Assembly (NCBI GenBank): GCA_964483315.1
Contig: CAZAAL010000001.1
Location: 122,850 to 186,849 of the forward strand
DNA from: an uncultured Candidatus Saccharibacteria bacterium
GTDB taxonomy: Bacteria > Patescibacteriota > Saccharimonadia > Saccharimonadales > UBA10212
DNA: 64,000 nt
Reading direction: 5' to 3'
Shown piece by piece: positions 22,690-48,333 of the stretch (positions are counted from its first letter, which is position 1; each line of letters starts with the position of its first letter). The position numbers and the translations under genes were made by a program. The notes beneath the pieces were generated by a model, which saw nothing but the letters and a program-made list of their open reading frames with translations, was not told where the DNA came from and searched no databases.

Positions 22690-23229
22690 ATGTTATCATT
22701 TTTTGGTCAATATACTTACGAGTATAACGTAGAGACTACTGACACAGGCGGGTTGCTAGCCGTAGGTGGCACATTGTTTGTAGTTTATTTAGTAATTTTG
22801 GTTCTTGCCATTGTTGCTATGTGGAAGCTTTTTGTAAAAGCTGGCGAACCTGGCTGGAAGGCTTTGATCCCGATTTATAACTATTGGACTTTGTGCGAGA
22901 TTGTTGGGCGCCCGGGCTGGTGGTCACTGCTGTTCTTGCCAGCGATGTTATTATTCTTTATACCTTTGATTAATTTCTTGGCGTGGCTGGTCTTGGTTGC
23001 AGTTAGCGTGGTTGTGATGTTAGATCTTGGCCGAGCGTTTAAAAAGACGACTACCTTTTCGGTTGTTGGTCTGATTCTATTTTCGTTAGTTGGTCTTTTA
23101 ATTCTTGGGTTTGGTAAAGACAAATATCATGGTCCAGATCCAGTTAAGCTTGGTAGTCTTGATCCAAAGTACACCTTAAAAGATGGTGGCGCTAAGACAT
23201 CTTCGAGTAAATCATCCAAAGAATCTTAA
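22690..23229 (+). CDS. hypothetical multi-TM membrane protein
   Basis: SD aagggagagg upstream. Four hydrophobic helices. Confidence 0.5.
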   Translation: MLSFFGQYTYEYNVETTDTGGLLAVGGTLFVVYLVILVLAIVAMWKLFVKAGEPGWKALIPIYNYWTLCEIVGRPGWWSLLFLPAMLLFFIPLINFLAWLVLVAVSVVVMLDLGRAFKKTTTFSVVGLILFSLVGLLILGFGKDKYHGPDPVKLGSLDPKYTLKDGGAKTSSSKSSKES

Positions 23230-24488
23230 TTAGAACTGCACAGTAGCTCTAAATAAGCAGTTGAGCCAAATGGTATCTTTTGGGGTAGTTTAGATTTGGT
23301 ATCGTGGGCATTTGCGAATGTAACTGTAAAATTTCCATAACGACCGTTTACATCATCCATCATCTTGGTTAAATCTTCCTCTTTATTCAACTCCTCAAAG
23401 AGGCTGGCTTGACCCCTTATAGATGGCTCGAGCCCATAGCACGTTACGCCCATCTCTTTAACGACTAGTCCAGGACGCTTTTTAAACAGTAAAAGGGCGC
23501 GCCTAAATATATCTTTGTCTGTATATACGCTGGTTTTAAACTTTTTACGAGCGTACCAAAAATCACCGCTACTAAACCGGGCGTAAACATACATGCCCCT
23601 TGCCGATACGTTTTTGTATCTAAGTTTCATGGCTGTTGAGTAGCTTAAATGAGCGAGTCGCTCGTAGATTTGCTCGTCGCTTGGGTTATATATGTCGAGC
23701 ACAAACTGCCTGCCTATTGATCCAAGCTTAGTTGGGTTGCCGTCTACCTCCCATCCACGAAGGCGTTGGTGCCAATCTAGCCCAACAACACTTTTAAAAA
23801 CACTATGCTTTAAAAGATTGGGGTTGGCGTCTAAAAACATCAAAGGAGTATGGATGCCGTAAGCTTTTAGCCTTGCTTCGTAGTGGTCGGCAATCCCGGG
23901 CAAATCGGTTAATTTTAGACTGCCTAAAACGTCTCTTAAATTGCTATGGGTTGTGACATCTAAACCGTCGGGCTTGTGCAGCCCGGCGGATACTTTAGCT
24001 AAAAATCGGTTAGTGGCTATACCTACGTTGCAAGTCACCCAACAGCCAACTTCGTATTTAAGTCGATCTTTTATTTCGTAGCCAATAGTTGTTAAAGTTT
24101 TTTGGTTTACCCAGCCTAGTGTGCCGTTAAAATCAATCACTCCTTCATCTATACTTTTCATGGTTATCTCGGGTGAGTAGCTTTTTAAAATAGCCAAAAG
24201 TTTTTGGTAAACATAGTGGTATTTTGGCGGGTCGGTTTCTAGCATTATAAGATTAGGCGCTAACTCCTTGGCGTCTTGCCAGGCCATTCCGGTTTTTATG
24301 CCTAAAGCTTTTGCCTCGTACGACGCAGCAATAATAATTGAACTTTTAACCAAGCGATTTGTGACTGCAATTGGTTTACCCCTTAGGTGTGGGCGGGCCT
24401 GTTGTTCAACGGTCGCAAAGCACGAATTCAAATCGATATGCATTATATTGGGCTCGGCTTTATTTAGGCTGTAATTAAGGTCGTTCAT
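23226..24488 (-). CDS. Y-family DNA polymerase (UmuC/DinB-like)
   Basis: N-terminal IMHIDLNSCFATVEQQARPHLRGKPIAVTNR (catalytic DxD region of the IMS family). 420 aa. Start ATG overlaps the stop of the upstream small ORF (ATGA). Confidence 0.85.
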   Translation of the reverse strand: MNDLNYSLNKAEPNIMHIDLNSCFATVEQQARPHLRGKPIAVTNRLVKSSIIIAASYEAKALGIKTGMAWQDAKELAPNLIMLETDPPKYHYVYQKLLAILKSYSPEITMKSIDEGVIDFNGTLGWVNQKTLTTIGYEIKDRLKYEVGCWVTCNVGIATNRFLAKVSAGLHKPDGLDVTTHSNLRDVLGSLKLTDLPGIADHYEARLKAYGIHTPLMFLDANPNLLKHSVFKSVVGLDWHQRLRGWEVDGNPTKLGSIGRQFVLDIYNPSDEQIYERLAHLSYSTAMKLRYKNVSARGMYVYARFSSGDFWYARKKFKTSVYTDKDIFRRALLLFKKRPGLVVKEMGVTCYGLEPSIRGQASLFEELNKEEDLTKMMDDVNGRYGNFTVTFANAHDTKSKLPQKIPFGSTAYLELLCSSN

Positions 24489-24772
24489 AGGCTAGCCTCC
24501 GCAATATGAATCAGAGTCCAGGTTAGTCTGGCCGAATCAAACTCTAACCTAAAATCAGCCGAGCCGTCGGACACATCAAAAATATGAACATTGCGTTGAC
24601 CTTTGGTAGTCGGGTGCCTAAGCCCCAGCTCACCAAAAATATAATCACGATTTTTATAGCGCATTTTTAACGGCAAGCAGTAGCGCGCTTCGGCTCCGTT
24701 GTCTTCAAAAATTGCCAAAACTTTTACACGTTTATTTATTTTTATTGGTTGGTTTTCCATACAATCCTCCAA
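24485..24772 (-). CDS. small protein translationally coupled to the Y-family polymerase (YolD-like accessory protein is a hypothesis)
   Basis: 95 aa. Its TGA stop overlaps the polymerase ATG (ATGA at 24485-24488). No recognisable catalytic motif. Confidence 0.5.
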   Translation of the reverse strand: MEDCMENQPIKINKRVKVLAIFEDNGAEARYCLPLKMRYKNRDYIFGELGLRHPTTKGQRNVHIFDVSDGSADFRLEFDSARLTWTLIHIAEASL

Positions 24773-25086
24773 CTAAACAGATTTACTGAATTTGACCAGG
24801 CAGGGATTTATAAGTTGGAGCTAACCGCAACGCCGTTGTTACCGATGCCTATAAACGTTGGCTTTTTAAGCGGGGAGCTATGTGATTGTATGGATGCATG
24901 CTTTTTATGGCAAGCAAAATTTATTAAAGCAACCCAACCAATTTATGAGTAGCTAATAAAAGTATAACCTAAATAATATCTAACTACATAATTGGTACAT
25001 ATGTTAAAAAAATGTAGATGGTTTTAGATATAAAAATAACGCCTATGGGGCGCTTTTTCGAATAATTTAAATTAAAAGTTTGTCTC

Positions 25087-25120
25087 GGGAGGGGTGGTCT
25101 CTTTCGAGACCACCCCTCCC
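25087..25120 (-). terminator. GC-rich hairpin terminator of the foreign gene
   Basis: Perfect 15-bp stem gggaggggtggtctc / gagaccacccctccc with loop tttc, located 10 nt after the minus-strand stop. Confidence 0.6.
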
Positions 25121-25130
25121 TCGCACCGAA

Positions 25131-25838
25131 CTACTCCACCTCGAGGGTGTAGTCGAGCGGGTTCGACCGGACCAGGCCGGCACCGACCGAATCGACGCTC
25201 ACCACCTCTCCACCGTTGCCGGTGGAGACGAACCTACCGGTGGGCTTGCCACCGGCACAGGTCAGGAAATGATTCCCGACCTTGAAGTCCGTCTTCTGGC
25301 TCTTGCTGGCCACTGGCACGCGTGCGCCGGCGTCGAGCTTCTTCTGGGCGACTGCGCGAGAGACGATCTCGATCGAGTTCGGACCCGCGCCGTAGCACAG
25401 GAAGAAGCTTCGATCGCTCATCTGCACGCACTGCCCGCGGGCGACCAGGTAGATCCAGTAGCCTGGATCGAACAGCCCTTCCGGGCTGTCGTATCCCGGC
25501 TCCGGGATGAAGTACAGCACCTTGTCCAGGGGCTGGTAGTAGCCCAGGTAGAGGGTGCTCCTGCTGCCGGGCAGCTGGATCGCGAGCTCGGCGATTCCCT
25601 GCGTCAGGGTCTTCGACCCGTCCTCGTAGTAGATGGTGGTCGGGAGGACTCCTTCCTGCTGGTCGAGGAGCTGGCCGAGCCCGGTGGTTGCCTGGTCGGG
25701 CGTTCCGCCCTTCAGGCAGTACACCGTGTCGGCCGGAGGCATCACGATGTCGTCGCCGCCGTTCGCCAGCGCGGTGCTGGTGAGGACGCTTGCCGTCAGG
25801 ACGAGCCCGACGACGAGTGCGATGAGTCTCTTCAAGAG
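25131..25838 (-). CDS. secreted hypothetical protein encoded in a high-GC (about 65%) foreign island
   Basis: Signal peptide MKRLIALVVGLVLTASVLTSTALA if the TTG start at 25836 is used (GGAGG SD lies 8 nt upstream). The ORF track gives a GTG start at 25844. Codon usage is GC3-rich, unlike the surrounding genes. Confidence 0.65.
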   Translation of the reverse strand, partial: LLKRLIALVVGLVLTASVLTSTALANGGDDIVMPPADTVYCLKGGTPDQATTGLGQLLDQQEGVLPTTIYYEDGSKTLTQGIAELAIQLPGSRSTLYLGYYQPLDKVLYFIPEPGYDSPEGLFDPGYWIYLVARGQCVQMSDRSFFLCYGAGPNSIEIVSRAVAQKKLDAGARVPVASKSQKTDFKVGNHFLTCAGGKPTGRFVSTGNGGEVVSVDSVGAGLVRSNPLDYTLEVE

Positions 25839-25927
25839 ACTCACCTCCTTTCGGTTGTTGAGTTGTATTCGGTGCGCGAGTACATCAAAAAAGCTGTAAA
25901 AGCCCTTTTTGATGTCTCAGAACCAAT

Positions 25928-25956
25928 ACTTTACTAGAAAATTAATAAAATGTCAA
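25928..25956 (-). promoter_or_regulatory. sigma70-like promoter (TTGACA-17-TAAAGT) driving the foreign gene
   Basis: Minus-strand TTGACAttttattaattttctagTAAAGT lies in AT-rich native-like sequence abutting the GC-rich island. Confidence 0.45.
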
Positions 25957-25976
25957 TATATAAACTAATGTTATTA

Positions 25977-26252
25977 TTAAACAACTACGCCGTAAAATCC
26001 TTCAAGCAATTTATAAACTACATAGGCTGGCCACACCAAAGCTTTTAAAAAGCCTGTAACAACGGCGCCAAAACCAACAGCGGCTTGCATCCAATAAACT
26101 AATGCCCCAACAAAGCCAACAAAATAAAGTGCTCCGCTTGTACCATGGTTAGATTTGTTCCCAGGTTTTTTGCTCCACTCTTTCCACTCTTTTGCGCCTT
26201 TTACTCTGGCCTTTATTTCGATTTGTGGGTCTTCTGATTTTTGCTTTGCCAT
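25977..26252 (-). CDS. small membrane protein
   Basis: 91 aa, two hydrophobic helices, K-rich N-terminus. Confidence 0.45.
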   Translation of the reverse strand: MAKQKSEDPQIEIKARVKGAKEWKEWSKKPGNKSNHGTSGALYFVGFVGALVYWMQAAVGFGAVVTGFLKALVWPAYVVYKLLEGFYGVVV

Positions 26253-26303
26253 GATCGCTCCTTTTCGGTTATATTTTTTATTATAGACGAGTATAATTAA
26301 AAT

Positions 26304-26561
26304 ATGAGCGCTAAAAATTTAGAAGGAAAATGTGACAGCTGTTTAATGCCATTTAAAAAAGACCCAAAAGGTGCAGACCGCGAGCATGAAAATTATTGTA
26401 GCTACTGCTACTATGATGGCAAATTGGCTTATGAGGGCGATGATGTAAACGAGTTCAAAAAAGCGATGGTTGATGCCATTACAGCCAGGGGAGAAAGCAA
26501 AACTAAAGCCAAACTATATGCCTGGATGGCTGGTTTTGCCCCACGCTGGAAAAATAAATAA
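26304..26561 (+). CDS. zinc-ribbon-like small protein
   Basis: CDSC...CSYC cysteine pairs. 85 aa. Confidence 0.45.
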   Translation: MSAKNLEGKCDSCLMPFKKDPKGADREHENYCSYCYYDGKLAYEGDDVNEFKKAMVDAITARGESKTKAKLYAWMAGFAPRWKNK

Positions 26562-26574
26562 ATTCTAAAAAGAA

Positions 26575-26805
26575 TTATTCGCCGAGCTCTTGCTCTTTGA
26601 TTTTTTCGACTGCTTTATCGGCTTCGCGATCTTCAGCTGTAACGTTTTTATCTTTTAAGAACAGTACGACTATTAAAGCCAGTAGCCATGATATAACCCA
26701 TGACAACAGTAAAAACAAGATAAAACTGTAGCCTTTTCGTCTTGCAAGCATCGCTGGCCAAAACGCTAACACCACCCAAATAAATATTCCTAAAACCCAA
26801 AGCAT
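26575..26805 (-). CDS. small membrane protein
   Basis: 76 aa, two TM helices. Confidence 0.4.
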   Translation of the reverse strand: MLWVLGIFIWVVLAFWPAMLARRKGYSFILFLLLSWVISWLLALIVVLFLKDKNVTAEDREADKAVEKIKEQELGE

Positions 26806-26894
26806 AAAAACTCCTAATTTAATTTGTATATGTATCTAAGTTAACACAAACTTCAATTAGGCAATAATCACGATCAAACATTTATAATAGTTTT

Positions 26895-27206
26895 ATGAGC
26901 AATAGCAAAGTTACAGGCGGAGTAGTCCATGAAGTTCCGGATGATCTAAAAAAAGCCTTAAAGGCAGATAATTCTGCGCTAGAGCGGTGGGAGGATTTAA
27001 CCCCGCTTGCACGCAATGAATGGATTTGCTGGACTATAACCGTAAAGCAACAAAAAACTCGGGATGAGCACGTTAAACGAGCAGTCAAGGAGCTTAAAGA
27101 AGGTAAACGCCGACCTTGTTGCTGGATTGGTTGTATCCACCGAAAAGACAAGAAGATTAGCCCATCAGTACAATGGGCGCTCGACAAGCAATCAAAATCC
27201 AAATAA
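26895..27206 (+). CDS. YdeI/OmpD-associated family protein
   Basis: LERWEDLTPLARNEWICWTITVKQQKTRDEHVKRAVKEL matches the YdeI family core. It is preferred over the fully overlapping minus-strand ORF. Confidence 0.55.
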   Translation: MSNSKVTGGVVHEVPDDLKKALKADNSALERWEDLTPLARNEWICWTITVKQQKTRDEHVKRAVKELKEGKRRPCCWIGCIHRKDKKISPSVQWALDKQSKSK

Positions 27207-28619: not shown

Positions 28620-28934
28620 ATGTATACCACAAAAAAAGACAAGCGAACTTATGCCGATAGAAGAGATTATCTAATTAAAGCCGTTAGTAATCGACGCAGG
28701 ATACTTAAGCAAAGATCTATTGAATATAAAGGTGGTAAATGCCAGATTTGTGGCTATAAAAGATTCCAAGGTGCTCTTGATTTACACCATATTGATCCAA
28801 AAACAAAAGAATTTGGCATAAGCTATAAAGGTTATTCAAGATCGTGGGTAAAAATTCAAACTGAACTAGATAAATGTATTCTAGTTTGTGCGAATTGTCA
28901 TAGAGAGATTGAGGGCGGTTTTATCACCATTTGA
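28620..28934 (+). CDS. HNH endonuclease (free-standing)
   Basis: CQICGYKRFQGALDLHHIDP...CANCHREIE is an HNH ββα-metal motif. 104 aa. Ends 13 nt from the 3' end of the intron-containing tRNA. Confidence 0.75.
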   Translation: MYTTKKDKRTYADRRDYLIKAVSNRRRILKQRSIEYKGGKCQICGYKRFQGALDLHHIDPKTKEFGISYKGYSRSWVKIQTELDKCILVCANCHREIEGGFITI

Positions 28935-28946
28935 TTTACATTTCTC

Positions 28947-29245
28947 TGGCTCCGGGGACTGGATTCGAACCAGCGACCTAGTGGTTACACCTTAATCACT
29001 ACTTTCATAATGTGTGGACTATCTTATCATCCGATTACTCGGAGCAGGGCGCTAATGAGAGTTTATTGTTAGGCTCACTCTCTAGTCTCTGAACCTTCCA
29101 AGATCCTTTATCCTAATTTTGGCTTGGCTGCAGATTAGCATATCTTGCGACTTAGCTTTCCCGCAATTCACCCTATTTTCGAGTTTGGTTACCCAAACAA
29201 GCTGCAATTTTACAGCCACCCGCTCTACCGCTGAGCTACCCCGGA
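28947..29245 (-). tRNA. tRNA-Asn(GUU) interrupted by a 224-nt group I intron in the anticodon loop
   Basis: 5' half (minus strand) is TCCGGGG-TA-GCTC-AGCGGTA-GAGC-G-GGTGG-CTGT, at 29212-29245. 3' half is TAA-CCACT-AGGTC-GCTGG-TTCGAAT-CCAGT-CCCCGGA-G-CCA, at 28947-28987. Joined, they give a 75-nt cloverleaf with loop CUGUUAA, U1-A72 and G73, closely matching bacterial tRNA-Asn. Confidence 0.8.
28988..29211 (-). mobile_element. group I self-splicing intron (IC3-like, similar to the cyanobacterial tRNA-Leu intron core)
   Basis: Core motifs GGGAAAGCUAAG, GCAGCCAAGCC and GGUUCAGAGACUAGAGAG are present. The 5' exon ends in U (GCUGU), which can pair with intron GCAGC (P1). The intron ends in G (AAGGUG). 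There is no internal ORF. Confidence 0.7.
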
Positions 29246-31584: not shown

Positions 31585-31712
31585 AAACACTTGTCAAACA
31601 GATTAAATTGCTTATACTTAATTATTAGTATCACTGACACACAAATAATTTAACAAAAATTGTGCAGTGGGACTCGCACCCTACTACTGTGAATAAGATA
31701 AAAATAACCTGG

Positions 31713-34700
31713 ATGAGAATATTCATGGTCACTGCTGTTATTGTGGCCTTGTTTTTCGTGGTGAGTTGGGGTGTTTCCAAATTAGTACCGGACAAAGTTA
31801 CTTTTAGGGGTAGCATTAAAACCGAAAAAGGCTCATTGCCCGATGGTTCATATGACGTAAGGGTAAGGTCTTTTAATGCGCTAAACTCATCAGACTTGTT
31901 ATACCAAATGGATTTTAAATCCATCCAGGTTAAAGACGGTCAATATGAGCTTGGCTACAATCTAAACAAAGAGTTTGCTTCTGTGCCTGCAGTAGTGGAG
32001 ATTTGTATAGACTCCGGTGATGGGTTTAAGGATAAGGATGGTAATGTATGTGCCGATGGTAGCTCGGACAGTATTTATGACTATGCACTTTGCCCCTACT
32101 ATATGCGGTCTAGGGCTGATGGATCATTCGCTTGGTTGATTAACCGAAAGGTTTACACCGAGCGCAATATGATTAAATGTCCGAATCTTGAAAAAGGCAC
32201 AACAGCTAGTAGTGAAAGCATAATCGAAAAGGCAAACGAGGCTGGGCTTAACGTATCGCTAATAAGCGCTGGCAATAAAAATCAGGTGGTTAACAACATC
32301 ACGAATATCAACCAAGTTGATGATCCGCAAACTCTAGTTATTGAGGGTAACGTGCTTTATATAAGTGGTGGCAATAGTGTAGTTTTACCAAGCTCTGGCT
32401 ATGGGGATACAGTTGATAATGATACGACTTATAGTGCTGGTAGTGGTTTGGTTTTAAACTCTACGACCTTTAGCCGTGAGTCGGGTTCGACCAATGGTCA
32501 GATTGAGGTCTGGGATGGCTCAAACTGGACTGATTTATCTGCCGGGACTAATGGGCAAGTCCTAACTATCGTGGGCGGTACGCCTGTCTGGCAATCAGGC
32601 GGAGCAGAAACTGATGGTGTAATTGGTAACGAGATAACAAATGTTGATGGAACAACTGGCTTGGCTCGAACTGGTACCGGTACTACTGGTGACCCATTTA
32701 TCGTGGCGCTTACCACAACCGGCGTTAGCGCTGGAACTTACAACAATGTCACAGTTAACGCCTACGGGCGTGTTACGTCTGCAAGCAATATTGCTTATCT
32801 GACATCTGAAACCGATGGGATAGTTGGTAATGAGCTAACTAATCTTACGGCGGGTGATGGTAAAGGCATACTTACCCGTAGCGGTACAGGTACCGGTGGA
32901 GACCCATATACCTTGAGCGTAGCTACTTGTGGCTTAAACCAAATTTTTAAATCTAATGGCAGTAGCTGGGCCTGCTCCTCCGACGTCGACACCGACACAA
33001 CCTACTCAGCTGGTAATGGTCTAAGTTTATCTACCACTACTTTTTCAGTTAACTCACCAACTTGTGCTGGCACCGACAAACTCCAATGGAATGGATCAGC
33101 TTTTGTATGTTCAGCTGATGTAGATACCGATACTGACACCACTGACTTTAATGTTTCAGCTCAAGGTACAGTTGGCTCACAAAACATAGCTGATGGTGGA
33201 ACAGTCTCATTCAGTAACGGCACAGGCACTACCGCCACTCGCTCAGGTTCAGCAGTTACCTATAGCCTAAACGATACAGCTGTAACAACTGGCACATATG
33301 GAACTAGTTCTAGTGTTGCTCAGTTCACAGTCGACCAACAAGGTCGAATCACTGGAGCCAGCTCAGTAGCTATAGACTTTGCCGGTAATGCTGTAACTAG
33401 CGTAACAGCCGGCAGTGGACTAACTAACGGTGGTGGCCCCGGAGCAATCACCATTAATGTTGGAGCTGGTAATGGTATTACAGTAAACGCTAACGACATA
33501 ACCGTAGATACTCTAGACTCAGCCGATGCTTTATCTTCAACCACATCAAATGGTTCTGGCTTAGAAGTCCTAGCTTCTGGTATTGGTCTATTACAAGGCT
33601 GTTCAGATAACCAAATCCTTAAATGGAATGAAGCTGGTGATCTATGGGGATGTGCTAATGACACAGATACCGATACCGACACTACAAACTTCAACATTCG
33701 AGCCAATGCCGGAGCTAGCGCCAATATCTCATCCGGCGGTACAGTTAGCTTTGTAGATGGTACTGGTACCACGGCTTCACGCTCTGGTAATGACATAGCC
33801 TTTAATCTAACTACAACTGGGGTTAGTGCTAATAGCTACGGTTCATCTACTCAAGTACCAGTCTTTACAGTAGATGCCTACGGACGTATATCTAGTGTTA
33901 CTAATACCAGTATTAACTTCCCGGCAGAGGTAGATGGTGTAGTAGGCAATGAAGTTACCAATGCCACATCAAATGCTGGCTTAACTCGTTCTGGTACTGG
34001 CACAGGTGGTGACCCATACACTCTAGGCGTATTACTACCATCTGCTACTGATGCCTTATCTTCAACAACTTCAACAGGCTCTGGTTTAGAACTCACATCA
34101 TCAGGACTTTCATTAATCCAAGGCTGTTCTAATAACCAAATCCTTAAATGGAATGAGACAAGTGATGTTTGGGCCTGCTCCTCCGACGTCGACACCGACA
34201 CAACCTACTCAGCTGGTAATGGTCTAAGTTTATCTACCACTACTTTTTCAGTTAACTCACCAACTTGTGCTGGCACCGACAAACTCCAATGGAATGGATC
34301 AGCTTTTGTATGTTCAGCTGATGTAGATACCGATACTGACACCACTGACTTTAATGTTTCAGCTCAAGGTACAGTTGGCTCACAAAACATAGCTGATGGT
34401 GGAACAGTCTCATTCAGTAACGGCACAGGCACTACCGCCACTCGCTCAGGTTCAGCAGTTACCTATAGCCTAAACGATACAGCTGTAACAACTGGCACAT
34501 ATGGAACTAGTTCTAGTGTTGCTCAGTTCACAGTCGACCAACAAGGTCGAATCACTGGAGCCAGCTCAGTAGCTATAGACTTTGCCGGTAATGCTGTAAC
34601 TAGCGTAACAGCCGGCAGTGGACTAACTAACGGTGGTGGCCCCGGAGCAATCACCATTAATGTTGGAGCTGGTAATGGTATTACAGTAAACGCTAACGAC

Positions 34701-36926
34701 ATAACCGTAGATACTCTAGACTCAGCCGATGCTTTATCTTCAACCACATCAAATGGTTCTGGCTTAGAAGTCCTAGCTTCTGGTATTGGTCTATTACAAG
34801 GCTGTTCAGATAACCAAATCCTTAAATGGAATGAAGCTGGTGATCTATGGGGATGTGCGGCGGATGCAAGCGGTGGCTCAATGACAATTGGCACGATCAA
34901 TTCACAAACAAAAAGCGCTGACGGAGCTGTAATATCATCAGGCGTATTGTATATGCAAACTGCCGACGGCACTAACCCTGGCTTAGTGAGTACTGGTGCA
35001 CAAAGTTTTGCAGGCAATAAAACATTTAGTGATGCATTAATCGCAACTTGTACGAATACTTCTACTAATGTTTTATGTGACGGCGGCAACACTAGGGGCG
35101 CAGGAATCGTCTTAGGATCTAACGATAACTTTGGCCTGACTTTTGAAACAAACAACACTACTGCAATGACAATTGCTAACAATGGTGCAATTACTATTGG
35201 AGCAACAACGATTGATCAGGCTATAACAATTGATAATGGGACAGGTGCGCTTAGCCTAGGTAATAGTAGTGATGCAAAGACAATCAATATTGGTACCGGT
35301 ACTGGTATCGATACTATCAATATTGGTACCGGTGCAACCTCTGCCGATGCAATAACCTTTGGTAATACGGGGGTAGCTACTACCCTAACATTCAACTCTG
35401 GAGTTTCTACTACTACTGCAATGTCATTTAACCTAAATTCATTAACTAGCGGCAACGGACTGGTCTTAAGCGCAACTAGCGTGACATCGGGCGAGGTATT
35501 CGAGATTCTTGGGCCTTCTAGCAGGAGTATTTTAAGAGTCAAAAATGAATCGGCTGACCCACTGGATGATCAACGGGTAATAATTGGTCAGGGTGGTTTG
35601 GCAAGCTCTAAACCGGATGAGCTTGCTCGGGATCAGCTCTATGTGTTTGGTCGAATTAACTATAGCTGGAACATGTTTAGCCAAGATTTTTTGGGTGGAG
35701 CTACGAATCTAACAGCGGATGGCACGGCATTTAACGCATACTATGACGAAGTGGCAGGTTCTGGTGGTACTGCACCATCTGGAGTTATGAACCAACAAAG
35801 TCTTGCATCTGGCTCTGGTGCTGGTCGGTTAACATTTAGTGGTACCCTTGGTACAGGACCTTGGGCTAGCTTGTATGGCACGAACGTTAACGTTACAGAA
35901 CGCTCGCTCAACCCGGTCTTTGAGGCTCGCATACAGGCAAGCTCAAACACAGACCAAAGGGCAATCGCTGGCTTTACAGATATTGCACTTAACACGGCCA
36001 TTGCAGCCGATACAAACAATTCAGCTAACGAGGTATTCTTTAGAAAAACAGCTGCTGGCACAAACTGGGAGGCAGTCACCCGAAACGCAAGCGGAGCAGA
36101 AAATGTCACGGGATTAGGAACCGCTTGTGCTGGAGGTACAGCGTGTACAACTGCTGCAATGCGGACAATGAGGATCGAGCTAGAAAACGTTGGCGCAAAC
36201 GGAACCGCTAGGTTTTATATTGATGGTACATTGGTAGCGACTCATACTACCGCAGCTGTGCCGGCTAACACTACAAGACTTGGCTGGAAGATTGGCACAA
36301 CACCAACCACAACAACCTACACTGGTCGGGTAGTTGATATAGATTACGTTAGAGTTTGGAGTGACGACCCTCCAACTGATGTGTTGGGCCAGGCATTAAG
36401 TACTACAATTATTGATAATTCTAACCAAGAGCAAGTTGATCAGATTGAGCTAACGACATTTGATTTAGTTGGTAACCAAGAAGAGCTAGCTAACTTAATC
36501 GATGGCCTAAGAGATGATGTTAATTGGCTAAAAGGTCAGGGTGTAGCCGATGCAGCTCTGAATGGGGGTTTGGTATCCGGCAATACAACTTTTGCTGATT
36601 TTGTGACATTTAATAGCGGGGTCACGTTTGACTCTACAGTAGATTTTGGAGGGGATGTTAAATTTATTGGTCAGGCTGAATTTGATGGGCACGTAATTTT
36701 TGGAACCGATGGTGCTGGTACGCTCGAGCTTGAAGCGGGTCAAACATCAACTAGATTTGCATTTGCAAAACCTTATCAAAAGCCTCCTGTTGTTACTGTA
36801 ACACCACTTGATTATGATGCCGGTTTTAGGCTCACAAACGTAGACGAAACAGGCTTTACGATTACTATTTCGACTAGTCAGAATACTCAAACTAGGTTTA
36901 ACTGGATTGTTGTTGGGCGTCAATAG
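31713..36926 (+). CDS. giant repeat-containing cell-surface protein with C-terminal H-type-lectin-like domain (candidate adhesin)
   Basis: The ORF track gives a GTG start at 31662. ATG 31713 (MRIFMVTAVIVALFFVVSWG, a TM/signal anchor) is more plausible. The body has ~200-aa G/T/S-rich repeats with the recurring motif GTYG..S.V..FTVD..GRI(T/S). The C-terminus FAFAKPYQKPPVVTVTPLDYDAGFRLTNVDETGFTITISTSQNTQTRFNWIVVG fits the H-type lectin fold pattern. Confidence 0.75.
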   Translation: MRIFMVTAVIVALFFVVSWGVSKLVPDKVTFRGSIKTEKGSLPDGSYDVRVRSFNALNSSDLLYQMDFKSIQVKDGQYELGYNLNKEFASVPAVVEICIDSGDGFKDKDGNVCADGSSDSIYDYALCPYYMRSRADGSFAWLINRKVYTERNMIKCPNLEKGTTASSESIIEKANEAGLNVSLISAGNKNQVVNNITNINQVDDPQTLVIEGNVLYISGGNSVVLPSSGYGDTVDNDTTYSAGSGLVLNSTTFSRESGSTNGQIEVWDGSNWTDLSAGTNGQVLTIVGGTPVWQSGGAETDGVIGNEITNVDGTTGLARTGTGTTGDPFIVALTTTGVSAGTYNNVTVNAYGRVTSASNIAYLTSETDGIVGNELTNLTAGDGKGILTRSGTGTGGDPYTLSVATCGLNQIFKSNGSSWACSSDVDTDTTYSAGNGLSLSTTTFSVNSPTCAGTDKLQWNGSAFVCSADVDTDTDTTDFNVSAQGTVGSQNIADGGTVSFSNGTGTTATRSGSAVTYSLNDTAVTTGTYGTSSSVAQFTVDQQGRITGASSVAIDFAGNAVTSVTAGSGLTNGGGPGAITINVGAGNGITVNANDITVDTLDSADALSSTTSNGSGLEVLASGIGLLQGCSDNQILKWNEAGDLWGCANDTDTDTDTTNFNIRANAGASANISSGGTVSFVDGTGTTASRSGNDIAFNLTTTGVSANSYGSSTQVPVFTVDAYGRISSVTNTSINFPAEVDGVVGNEVTNATSNAGLTRSGTGTGGDPYTLGVLLPSATDALSSTTSTGSGLELTSSGLSLIQGCSNNQILKWNETSDVWACSSDVDTDTTYSAGNGLSLSTTTFSVNSPTCAGTDKLQWNGSAFVCSADVDTDTDTTDFNVSAQGTVGSQNIADGGTVSFSNGTGTTATRSGSAVTYSLNDTAVTTGTYGTSSSVAQFTVDQQGRITGASSVAIDFAGNAVTSVTAGSGLTNGGGPGAITINVGAGNGITVNANDITVDTLDSADALSSTTSNGSGLEVLASGIGLLQGCSDNQILKWNEAGDLWGCAADASGGSMTIGTINSQTKSADGAVISSGVLYMQTADGTNPGLVSTGAQSFAGNKTFSDALIATCTNTSTNVLCDGGNTRGAGIVLGSNDNFGLTFETNNTTAMTIANNGAITIGATTIDQAITIDNGTGALSLGNSSDAKTINIGTGTGIDTINIGTGATSADAITFGNTGVATTLTFNSGVSTTTAMSFNLNSLTSGNGLVLSATSVTSGEVFEILGPSSRSILRVKNESADPLDDQRVIIGQGGLASSKPDELARDQLYVFGRINYSWNMFSQDFLGGATNLTADGTAFNAYYDEVAGSGGTAPSGVMNQQSLASGSGAGRLTFSGTLGTGPWASLYGTNVNVTERSLNPVFEARIQASSNTDQRAIAGFTDIALNTAIAADTNNSANEVFFRKTAAGTNWEAVTRNASGAENVTGLGTACAGGTACTTAAMRTMRIELENVGANGTARFYIDGTLVATHTTAAVPANTTRLGWKIGTTPTTTTYTGRVVDIDYVRVWSDDPPTDVLGQALSTTIIDNSNQEQVDQIELTTFDLVGNQEELANLIDGLRDDVNWLKGQGVADAALNGGLVSGNTTFADFVTFNSGVTFDSTVDFGGDVKFIGQAEFDGHVIFGTDGAGTLELEAGQTSTRFAFAKPYQKPPVVTVTPLDYDAGFRLTNVDETGFTITISTSQNTQTRFNWIVVGRQ
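32967..33655 (+). repeat. 689-bp direct repeat, copy 1 (inside the giant gene)
   Basis: Identical to 34170-34858 (offset 1203 bp). Encodes an identical 229-aa block. Confidence 0.85.
34170..34858 (+). repeat. 689-bp direct repeat, copy 2 (inside the giant gene)
   Basis: By eye it is a perfect copy of 32967-33655. The 514-bp segment between the copies is a diverged relative of the same unit. Confidence 0.85.
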
Positions 36927-47596: not shown

Positions 47597-47605
47597 AAAG
47601 CGAAT

Positions 47606-47639
47606 GCCCCGCACCCAGTCCGAAGACCAAGTGCGGGGC
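47606..47639 (-). terminator. GC-rich hairpin terminator of the second foreign operon (possibly bidirectional)
   Basis: gccccgcac ...16 nt... gtgcggggc, followed on the minus strand by auucgcuuuuu. Confidence 0.6.
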
Positions 47640-47650
47640 AGGTTGTGGGT

Positions 47651-47743
47651 TTACTTGTTTCTCTTACTCCTGCGCCACCTGATGACCGAGAGCAGAACTC
47701 CCGTGACAGCGAGAAGCAGGATGATGGTGATAACACCGTTCAT
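47651..47743 (-). CDS. 30-aa hydrophobic peptide (MNGVITIILLLAVTGVLLSVIRWRRSKRNK), translationally coupled
   Basis: Its ATG overlaps the TGA of the upstream 130-aa ORF (cgATGAac). GC-rich codons. The ORF track's longer 47651-47860 frame is rejected upstream of this ATG. Confidence 0.45.
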   Translation of the reverse strand: MNGVITIILLLAVTGVLLSVIRWRRSKRNK

Positions 47744-48132
47744 CGACAGTACCTCCCGATTTTGGGATCGGATGGACTGTAGGCGATTGGCACGATCTGC
47801 GGAGCAAAGGGCACAGGTACTATCTTGATCCTGATGCACTTGCCGTCTGCCAGAGCCCACGCTGCTCTTGCTGCGACCAGCGACAAGCCGGCCGAAACAA
47901 TCACGTTCGCAGGCGGAGGCAGTGCAGCTGCCAACGCCGAACCAGCTCCCGTTCCGATTCCGAACTTTTCAGTGCCACGCTTGGACAGGTAAACGTCACC
48001 TGTCACCCGGTGCCACTTAAAGACGTAGTCGGGCGGTTGCCGTTTGGGCTTATCGCCAGCCAGCGCCGGTGTTGCCACCAACGCTGACAGGCTTAGCCCA
48101 ATGAACAGTGTCACAATCTTGAGCTTCATCAC
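47740..48132 (-). CDS. secreted hypothetical protein in the second high-GC foreign island
   Basis: Signal peptide MMKLKIVTLFIGLSLSALVATPALA. SD GGAG 8 nt upstream. GC about 58-60% against about 38% background. Confidence 0.6.
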   Translation of the reverse strand: MMKLKIVTLFIGLSLSALVATPALAGDKPKRQPPDYVFKWHRVTGDVYLSKRGTEKFGIGTGAGSALAAALPPPANVIVSAGLSLVAARAAWALADGKCIRIKIVPVPFAPQIVPIAYSPSDPKIGRYCR

Positions 48133-48223
48133 TGAAGCTCCTTTCGATTAGGGGTCAGTTTACCCAACCCCCCCATTCGAAAGTGATACATCACGGAGAG
48201 TCCCACCTCACCGCAATCACGCT

Positions 48224-48252
48224 ATTTTACCATAACCATAATAAAAAGTCAA
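48224..48252 (-). promoter_or_regulatory. sigma70-like promoter (TTGACT-17-TAAAAT) for the second foreign operon
   Basis: Minus-strand ATATATTGACTTTTTATTA... is nearly identical to the -35 region upstream of the first island (ATATATTGACATTTTATTA). Confidence 0.45.
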
Positions 48253-48333
48253 TATATTACTAACTAAAGTCCACTTTACTAGATTTAATTTTATTGGTGG
48301 TTTATATTCTGTTTAGCTAAGGAGTTAAAGCTT

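Follow-up and report, generated by a model that had tools for sequence, protein, structure and literature searches.

The 64,000-nucleotide stretch analysed here (contig CAZAAL010000001.1 of assembly GCA_964483315.1, from an uncultured Candidatus Saccharibacteria bacterium; hereafter, the window) carries on its minus strand a gene for a predicted secreted protein of 234 residues, which lies in a short block of high GC content within otherwise AT-rich DNA. The overall best explanation, which we consider quite probable, is that this block was imported as a single-gene unit from a high-GC Actinomycetota donor; the import from an actinobacterial donor is well supported. In the proposed mechanism, the donor would belong to the Gaiellales or to related soil lineages, the actual donors being unsampled, and the recipient chromosome, at ~39% GC, would have received the expression unit as one block comprising a leader of ~45 nt with a Shine-Dalgarno (SD) sequence, a start-sequestering hairpin, the 234-codon open reading frame (ORF) and a GC-rich hairpin. 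Transcription would most likely begin at a recipient-type, AT-rich, sigma-70-type promoter directly upstream, and would probably end at the GC hairpin or at a host terminator 33 nt beyond it.

The compositional evidence for a foreign block is clear. In 200-nt windows the GC content rises from 0.30 (24900-25099) to 0.63-0.675 (25100-25800) and falls to 0.38 (25800-25999), with flanking windows of 0.30-0.47 on either side, and the block as a whole (25087 to ~25878) is 63-68% GC in a window of 0.394 GC overall. An earlier note, made from the DNA sequence, had described a block of ~65% GC in ~38% GC DNA spanning 25087-25860; its composition and left edge agree with our results, and the right edge lies ~20 nt further out, at ~25878. 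Relative to 48 native ORFs of the window (GC 0.391+/-0.026; GC at third codon positions, GC3, 0.333+/-0.035), the gene has a GC content of 0.650 (z=10) and a GC3 of 0.877 (z=15.5), and the segment 25001-25800 is the top tetranucleotide outlier of the window (z=6.4), so the island stands out in both the sliding-window and the tetranucleotide checks that the note had proposed. Its Leu, Val, Thr and Pro codons nearly all end in C or G, in line with the GCC/CTG/CGG-rich codon usage read in the note, whereas native genes favour A or T.

The abruptness of the GC steps, together with the disagreement of public gene callers on the coding strand, might be taken to suggest a chimeric join or a contaminating actinobacterial fragment in the assembly, a reading to which we attach negligible probability. 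The junctions were checked in Logan contigs from other sequencing runs, belonging to at least three accession series. Five such contigs cross both junctions, namely L001 (SRR35430755; 100% identity over 1,733 bp), L002 (SRR12262941; 99.8% over 1,719 bp) and L019 (SRR12262946), L020 (SRR14271336) and L021 (SRR12262942), the last three at 99.96-100% identity, and a sixth, L022 (SRR12262944; 99.3%), covers the right junction only. Because these six contigs of other runs reproduce one or both junctions at 99.3-100% identity, the island is not an assembly artefact, and the chimeric assembly that the earlier note wished to see checked is excluded. The six near-identical contigs have zero single-nucleotide polymorphisms (SNPs) within the island, their few differences all lying outside it. 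The junctions of a second GC-rich island of the window, described below, are likewise confirmed.

The distribution of the family points to its source. A word-indexed search recovered 19 relatives of the window protein, and a hidden Markov model scan of 1.84 billion cluster representatives gave 41 at E<=1e-3, which marks the family as very rare. Scanning one genome per GTDB species yielded ten loci, all of 0.65-0.73 GC (gene-bearing genomes, 0.65-0.74), in three Gaiella sp., six soil metagenome-assembled genomes (MAGs) labelled 'uncultured Actinomycetes' and one 'Chloroflexia' MAG; nine of the ten named carriers are thus Actinomycetota, in line with the search against Actinobacteria suggested in the earlier note, and zero low-GC copies were found among the GTDB species representatives. 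The copy with the sole label from outside the Actinomycetota (L017; 72.5% GC) is frameshifted and partial, which may point to a pseudogene or to an error in binning; a distant family member, P0069, is named as from a Gaiellaceae bacterium in NCBI. The actinobacterial copies have a gene GC of 0.63-0.69 and a GC3 of 0.87-0.93, slightly under their surroundings, and five loci of actinobacterial group 2 keep their neighbours, with an adenosine deaminase gene upstream and an Abhydrolase_2 gene downstream. Because the gene matches the GC content of these genomes and its neighbours are kept in five loci, high-GC Actinomycetota are the native home of the family, within which it is passed on vertically. 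The carriers, the genome-matching GC content and the kept neighbours together uphold the high-GC donor of actinobacterial type that the note had envisaged.

The organization of the gene is consistent with a unit that travelled with its own control elements. The coding sequence (25131-25835, minus strand), which is identified from its ORF, its homologues and its GC3, comprises 234 codons and a TAG stop (25133-25131). Its TTG start codon (25833-25835) sits 8 nt after the SD sequence AAAGGAGG (25844-25851) and gives a protein of 234 residues, equal in length to the public gene call P0001, whereas the GTG at 25844, the start used by the ORF finder, overlaps the SD sequence; the TTG at 25835, and not this GTG, is most likely the true start. 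The donor-type translation initiation region (25820-25851, minus strand; inverted repeat I14, also seen in folds) combines the SD sequence with an 11-bp hairpin, GGTGAGTCTCT-TGA-AGAGACTCATC (-16.2 kcal/mol), which covers part of the SD sequence and holds most of the TTG start in its loop. A comparable hairpin is present in the actinobacterial copies L004 (GGTTCTCC-GTG-AGGAGAATC, -15.0 kcal/mol) and L009 (-15.1 kcal/mol); it is shorter in L005, L010 and L016 (-9 to -12 kcal/mol), occurs also in the low-GC copies L003 and L007, and is weak or absent in L011, L012, L015 and L025. Over eight sequences, 80.6% of cells pair, compared with 37-56% when the partner is slid, and three of nine pairs change on both sides; the covariation appears suggestive, with shuffles reaching the observed values in 22-75 of 500 trials. 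Hairpins that sequester the SD sequence or start codon are known as translational operators and as RNA thermometers of the fourU/ROSE type. The window hairpin resembles these in being stable (-16 kcal/mol), in lying over part of the SD sequence and the start, and in being kept across the family, but it matches no Rfam family and its covariation support is modest.

The stop codon is followed directly by the 3' arm TTCGGTGCG (25122-25130, minus strand) of a 9-nt perfect inverted repeat (I20), considered below, and then by a perfect 15-bp stem with a 4-nt loop, GGGAGGGGTGGTCTC GAAA GAGACCACCCCTCCC (25087-25120, minus strand; I3). The 3' region folds better than 200 of 200 shuffles (z=-6.1). The earlier note had described this element as the gene's own GC-only 15-bp terminator. 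The 15-bp stem stands, but 12 of its 15 pairs are G+C, and because the bases that follow are GAGACAAAC instead of a U-run it is not a canonical intrinsic terminator, nor was it listed by the terminator scan; it is probably a donor-type terminator or 3' stabiliser. That the gene brought its own hairpin, as the note had proposed, agrees with the presence of hairpins of the GGGGGTGG...CCACCCCC type after the stop codon in the actinobacterial copies L004, L009, L012 and L015. Since the start hairpin and this type of 3' hairpin are both family traits in actinobacterial copies, the block would have moved as a unit. Hairpin terminators without a U-tract have been reported from high-GC Actinobacteria, and the likeness extends to the long, perfect, GC-rich stem right after the stop codon, the missing U-tail and its occurrence in homologues; the window differs in having a canonical host terminator 33 nt downstream. 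The latter, a recipient-type, bidirectional intrinsic terminator identified by the terminator scan and folding (25038-25054, both strands), is a hairpin flanked by an A-run and a T-run and likely acts as a back-stop.

A plus-strand ORF of 285 codons (25080-25937) lies antisense to the gene. It is rejected as an artefact of high GC content, with a GC3 of 0.605 and a first-position GC (GC1) of 0.82 compared with a GC3 of 0.877 in the minus-strand frame, and homologues were found for the minus-strand frame only. This antisense ORF is annotated in place of the 234-residue gene in public assemblies (L019-L022), and such miscalls conceal the family from protein-level surveys.

In contrast with the donor-type elements, the region upstream of the block has the composition of the recipient. 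A sigma-70-type promoter (25928-25956, minus strand), TTGACA (25956-25951), 17 nt and TAAAGT (25933-25928), is predicted there with a consensus match of 10/12 in the promoter scan; the earlier note had described it as host-like. It is AT-rich and overlaps a 19-nt box, ATATATTGACATTTTATTA (25943-25961). At the 5' end of the predicted leader is an AT-rich, recipient-type hairpin, ACATCAAAAA...TTTTTGATGT (25882-25915, minus strand; inverted repeat I16), and at the right edge of the GC-rich block is the 5' arm CGCACCGAA (25868-25876, minus strand) of the inverted repeat I20, which brackets leader and coding sequence and is separated from the SD sequence by ~16 nt of leader. The leader folds into two hairpins (z=-5.4; better than 200 of 200 shuffles), and zero family matches were found for it in Rfam. 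The other low-GC copies are preceded by analogous TTGAC[AT]-17-TAARRT promoters. Actinobacterial copies are preceded by a TTGAC[AT] promoter of their own, which lies in GC-rich DNA and in L016 has its -35 box ~85 nt upstream of the start codon. Given that the promoter and 5' hairpin in the window are AT-rich, whereas the actinobacterial promoters lie in GC-rich DNA, capture of a local promoter by the imported block is a reasonable reading of the sequences.

Four further contigs, representing three other low-GC genomes, carry GC-rich copies of the gene: L003 and L024, from JGI sample 3300086378, and L007 (ENA ERZ27251427) and L008 (SRR5256987), which are one genome in two assemblies. The copies in L003, L007 and L024 have a gene GC of 0.60-0.61 and a GC3 of 0.74-0.77, compared with flanks of 0.45-0.47. 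These genomes are related (XerC, 80% identity between L003 and L007; T2SSE, 84.5%, and T2SSF, 71%, between L007 and L024), and in all three the gene occupies one locus. On one side of it is XerC, accompanied in L007 by a PaaX_M-like gene, and on the other a type IV pilus operon encoding PilB-like and PilT-like ATPases, PilC, a prepilin peptidase and pilins. No secretin-like Pfam match was found in the pilus clusters of L007 and L024, which fits, but is not diagnostic of, the type IV pilus cluster lacking a secretin that has been described for Saccharibacteria (PMC9894109, PMC11623550). A Saccharibacteria-like epibiont, as envisaged in the earlier note, is thus a plausible recipient, with a low-GC actinobacterium or a member of another phylum as alternatives. 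Apart from the cassette itself, the window and L007 share zero genes.

The phylogeny argues that these copies do not descend from one import. The closest homologue of the window protein is the L003 copy (52% identity), itself a GC-rich island in a low-GC genome, and in a neighbour-joining tree of 32 sequences (201 columns, 300 bootstraps) the two pair with 86% support. The L007 copy, however, joins actinobacterial group 1 (100%), to which it is 56-59% identical as against ~40% to L003 and L024, and the four low-GC copies form a single clade in 0% of the bootstraps. At least two imports into low-GC genomes is the simplest reading of these sequences, and the grouping of the L007 allele with actinobacterial sequences, rather than with L003 and L024, suggests that an allele was possibly replaced at an already occupied site. 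The single acquisition described in the earlier note is thus upheld as an import but not as a one-off event, the polyphyly of the low-GC copies indicating recurrent import. Identities also differ along the protein: the window protein shares 91% of its last 34 residues with actinobacterial group 1 and 68% with L003, whereas over residues 121-160 the order is reversed (67% to L003, 40% to group 1), a pattern that indicates mosaicism. With its GC3 of 0.877, the window copy falls in the actinobacterial range of 0.87-0.93, whereas L003, L007 and L024 are partly ameliorated at 0.74-0.77; because it is the least ameliorated, the window copy would be the most recent import. The recent acquisition that the note had advanced accords both with this donor-level GC3 and with the SNP-free island in the six contigs.

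A further feature distinguishes the low-GC copies. In all four, a perfect complement of 8-12 nt joins the leader to the first bases past the stop codon, the arms being CGCACCGAA / TTCGGTGCG in the window, GAACCGGATTTA / TAAATCCGGTTC in L003, TCGAACCGGT / ACCGGTTCGA in L007 and GAACCGGA / TCCGGTTC in L024. Shuffled leaders reach these arm lengths in 0, 0, 1 and 14 of 500 trials, respectively. No significant exact complement between leader and 3' region was found within 150 nt in 11 high-GC copies, and a duplex-energy scan over 300 nt gave weak signals in only L009 and L010 among the high-GC copies, with L024 below significance. On inspection, the window and L003 arms differ on both sides at matching positions (ACCGAA/TTCGGT versus ACCGGA/TCCGGT), with pairing kept. 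Three readings are available, i.e. 5'-3' closure of the mRNA, a terminal inverted repeat of a mobilisable cassette or an integration scar. Pairing between the 5' and 3' untranslated regions of one mRNA is known for icaR of Staphylococcus aureus and hbs of Bacillus subtilis. The low-GC copies resemble these in their perfect 8-12-nt complement between the leader and the post-stop bases and in its co-variation between copies; the complement differs in being limited here to low-GC copies, in being recognized from sequence, and in having a terminal repeat or a scar of integration as alternative explanations.

These features bear on where the window copy came from. It might have been taken from another low-GC bacterium already carrying the gene, promoter and leader included, as would be consistent with the low-GC L003 copy being its nearest relative (52% identity, 86% bootstrap), with the TTGAC[AT]-17-TAARRT layout and leader motifs (AACCGAAAGGAGGTGA) shared by the low-GC copies, and with the leader/3'-end inverted repeat, which is present in these and absent from high-GC copies. 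Such a secondary transfer is nevertheless improbable in our assessment, as the window GC3 (0.877) is at the actinobacterial level and above the 0.74-0.77 of the other low-GC copies, and the divergence implied by 52% identity, had it accumulated inside low-GC genomes, should have brought at least equal amelioration; the 34 C-terminal residues are, moreover, closer to actinobacterial group 1 (91%) than to L003 (68%), and the high-GC locus L025 has the ribosome-binding site and leader motif as well.

Still less likely is an old resident gene, acquired once by a common ancestor of all low-GC carriers and held at high GC by selection on mRNA or protein or by biased repair. The shared locus of L003, L024 and L007 (XerC, gene, pilus operon), which persists although the pilus proteins are only 25-85% identical, could be read in this way, and some positions could be under constraint from the conserved RNA features, namely the start hairpin and the leader/3' pairing; a synonymous-site GC3 of 0.88, compared with 0.33 in native genes, is however beyond what local RNA structures can hold. 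A single ancestral acquisition is also at odds with the 0% support for monophyly of the low-GC copies, with the nesting of the L007 copy in actinobacterial group 1 (100%), with a window locus unrelated to that of the other three low-GC genomes and with the absence of the gene from all 32 relatives of the window region around p95-DinB (see below). The reverse direction, an origin of the family in low-GC bacteria followed by export to Actinomycetota, could appeal to the midpoint-rooted tree, which places low-GC copies at the base of actinobacterial group 1, but the gene is at compositional equilibrium in high-GC genomes only and is a GC outlier by 14-27 points in every low-GC genome, the synteny of actinobacterial group 2 is kept in five loci, and ten of ten GTDB matches are high-GC; we regard this direction as very improbable indeed.

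With import from an actinobacterial donor as the preferred explanation, the surroundings of the island bear on its route of entry. Exact look-ups with both flanking proteins showed that all contigs carrying a flanking gene and reaching the insertion site have the island; an empty site in sister genomes was not found, the look-ups returning island-bearing or truncated contigs only. One relative, L023 (ENA ERZ27258550; 92.4% identical over 25933-26943), stops exactly at the -10 box bordering the island, perhaps because strains vary at the insertion point or perhaps by chance. A metagenome scan with DinB recovered 32 relatives (55-67% identity; contigs of 0.43-0.58 GC), none of which has the gene, and synteny is lost beyond p95-DinB. 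The p95 gene (91-95 residues, no Pfam match) overlaps the DinB start (window 23226-24772, minus strand), and as the pair is kept in 30 of 32 loci (L026-L057), p95 is probably a DinB accessory gene.

No integrase was found among the neighbours of the island, flanking direct repeats are at chance level only, and no tRNA lies within 3.8 kb. The family is absent from 50,697 phage records, 72,556 plasmids and IMG/VR contigs, and the window itself is not phage-like. A transposon or an integron cassette was considered and rejected, no transposase, attC-like site or target duplication being found. Entry may have been by uptake of free DNA, with recombination, either illegitimate or assisted by homology, as the next step.

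The encoded protein would be exported by Sec, cleaved after A22-L-A24 and stabilised by two disulfides. Its signal peptide (residues 1-24; 25764-25835) has the typical n/h/c layout, with MKR, 18 hydrophobic residues and A22-L-A24 preceding N25; the N terminus reads MKRLIALVVGLVLTASVLTSTALA, then NG after the cleavage point, and both A22 and A24 of the AxA site are invariant in 19 homologues. No lipobox cysteine, sortase motif or further transmembrane segment was found in the sequence (maximum hydropathy past residue 40, 1.09). These are the properties of a soluble protein exported by Sec with a type I signal peptide, as which we classify it by prediction. The mature protein is of ~22 kDa and acidic, with a predicted isoelectric point of ~4.7, and Cys40, Cys136, Cys147 and Cys193 are invariant. 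The C-terminal third is conserved (...HYLTC..PTGxxVSTGNGGE..GAGL..NPLDYTxEVS, with ...NPLDYTLEVE at the C terminus of the window protein), the conserved domain covering approximately residues 141-234, whereas the N-terminal half is hypervariable, the first 120 residues being <45% identical even in the closest pairs. AlphaFold2 models made with 19 and then 32 sequences agree with this division, residues 141-234 forming a small alpha/beta domain with a predicted local distance difference test score of 88-97 and most of residues 1-140 scoring <50.

No match for the protein was found in Pfam, PHROGs, NCBIfam, the PDB or a fold search, and Pfam, PHROGs and NCBIfam returned nothing relevant for it and 31 family members. 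Both the 230-240-residue protein with a signal peptide and the lack of a recognisable domain that the earlier note had described are thus borne out. A type IV pilin or pseudopilin, considered for the pilus operon neighbourhood in L007 and L024, was rejected, the signal peptide being type I with an AxA site and not class III, the protein having no N_methyl match, and pseudopilin folds being matched at a probability of 0.04-0.05 only. We propose that the product is a soluble extracellular protein of ~22 kDa, in which the C-terminal alpha/beta domain would be the functional core and the fast-evolving N-terminal half a specificity module. The effector or surface-factor role suggested in the earlier note is conjectural, the evidence for it being limited to the secretion signals.

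The remainder of the window is ordinary chromosomal DNA, with rhamnose and glycosyltransferase genes, GlmS, glutamate dehydrogenase, p95-DinB, UppP and a TetR regulator, as well as Nramp, an archaeal-type non-discriminating AspRS, a LexA-like protein, MurJ, a Mur ligase, MscS, LepA and Gmk; zero rRNA or ribosomal-protein genes were found in it. The only tRNA of the window, tRNA-Asn(GUU) (28947-29245, minus strand), was missed by the default tRNA scan; its anticodon loop is split by a 224-nt group I intron (RF00028, 72.5 bits; intron-aware ARAGORN), and a free-standing HNH endonuclease ORF (28620-28934, plus strand; Pfam HNH, E=4.7e-6) adjoins it. A surface-protein ORF of 1,754 residues (31662-36926), with a C-terminal H-type lectin match and a moderately raised GC content of 0.44-0.49, is the second tetranucleotide outlier (z ~3-3.6).

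The second GC island (47600-48215; 0.55-0.66 GC; gene GC3 0.63, z=8.3) has the same minus-strand layout, with a signal-peptide ORF of 130 residues (47740-48132), an overlapping membrane-peptide ORF of 30 codons (~47651-47743), a GC hairpin (~47603-47640) and an AT-rich promoter. The encoded protein is an orphan whose only match in 5.8 billion clusters is itself, and both junctions of the island are confirmed by an independent contig, L058. The 19-nt box, ATATATTGAC[A/T]TTTTATTA, which lies over the -35 region, is found at exactly two places in 64 kb (25943-25961 and 48239-48257, both on the minus strand), in both cases upstream of a GC island, with an expectation of 0.22 even when three mismatches are allowed; elsewhere in the window, TTGACW-N17-TAxxxT sites have flanks unrelated to the box. 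The box may mean that the two islands belong to one regulon, that a promoter module was copied, or that insertion favours such sites.

Compositionally atypical single-gene islets acquired horizontally are familiar from the amelioration framework of Lawrence and Ochman. The window unit resembles these in its sharp break in GC, GC3 and codon usage, in its patchy distribution and in a donor signature that decays with residence (0.88 versus 0.74-0.77). It thus has both the composition and the phylogeny and distribution of an acquired islet; it differs in that no mobility signature is present, with no integrase, tRNA target, direct repeat or insertion sequence at its borders, and in being a complete donor transcription unit minus the promoter. 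As a clean and recent case of one gene crossing a 25-point gap in GC content, the island belongs to a known type of event; what it adds is the unusually clear donor signature, the uncharacterised secreted cargo and the finding that the low-GC copies do not stem from a single import.

Gene flow into small-genome, pilus-bearing bacteria from members of their communities has precedents. In an aquifer survey of Patescibacteria, transfers mostly stayed inside the phylum and Actinomycetota rarely served as donors, in one event (PMC12455944), and oral Saccharibacteria carry genes of mixed origin (PMC7427843). The present case is of this kind, and differs in the repeated import of one secreted-protein family, which is not described in the literature examined. 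Gene exchange between Nanoarchaeum and Ignicoccus is an example of gene flow involving an episymbiont.

We propose that low-GC genomes acquired this rare family on at least two occasions; in one lineage it lies beside the type IV pilus operon. That the recipients deploy the protein outside the cell, where it would bind or mimic an envelope component of Actinobacteria that live beside them or serve as their hosts, is a tentative suggestion, and a transfer from host to epibiont is possible though rather doubtful. A fuller scenario, to which we give slightly less credence again, is that the low-GC carriers are pilus-bearing, Saccharibacteria-like episymbionts of soil Actinomycetota that repeatedly capture host DNA, probably by competence, and that keep one secreted host protein under their own promoter, in one lineage beside the pilus operon, as a factor for host recognition or mimicry; the N-terminal half would then track host specificity, and alleles would be replaced by fresh imports.

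The overall results provide insights into how a very rare, unannotated and predicted secreted protein family may pass between distant bacteria. The gene appears to travel with its own translation control and 3' hairpin, to which the recipients would add a local promoter and the leader/3'-end complement, and in one lineage it adjoins the pilus machinery that episymbiotic bacteria use for host attachment. Because GC-rich copies in other low-GC bacteria do not come from one import, the gene may matter for life beside Actinobacteria. If the recipients are indeed epibionts of Actinomycetota, the family would be a testable candidate for a host-derived interaction factor, and would also serve as a marker by which uncultured epibionts could be matched to hosts.

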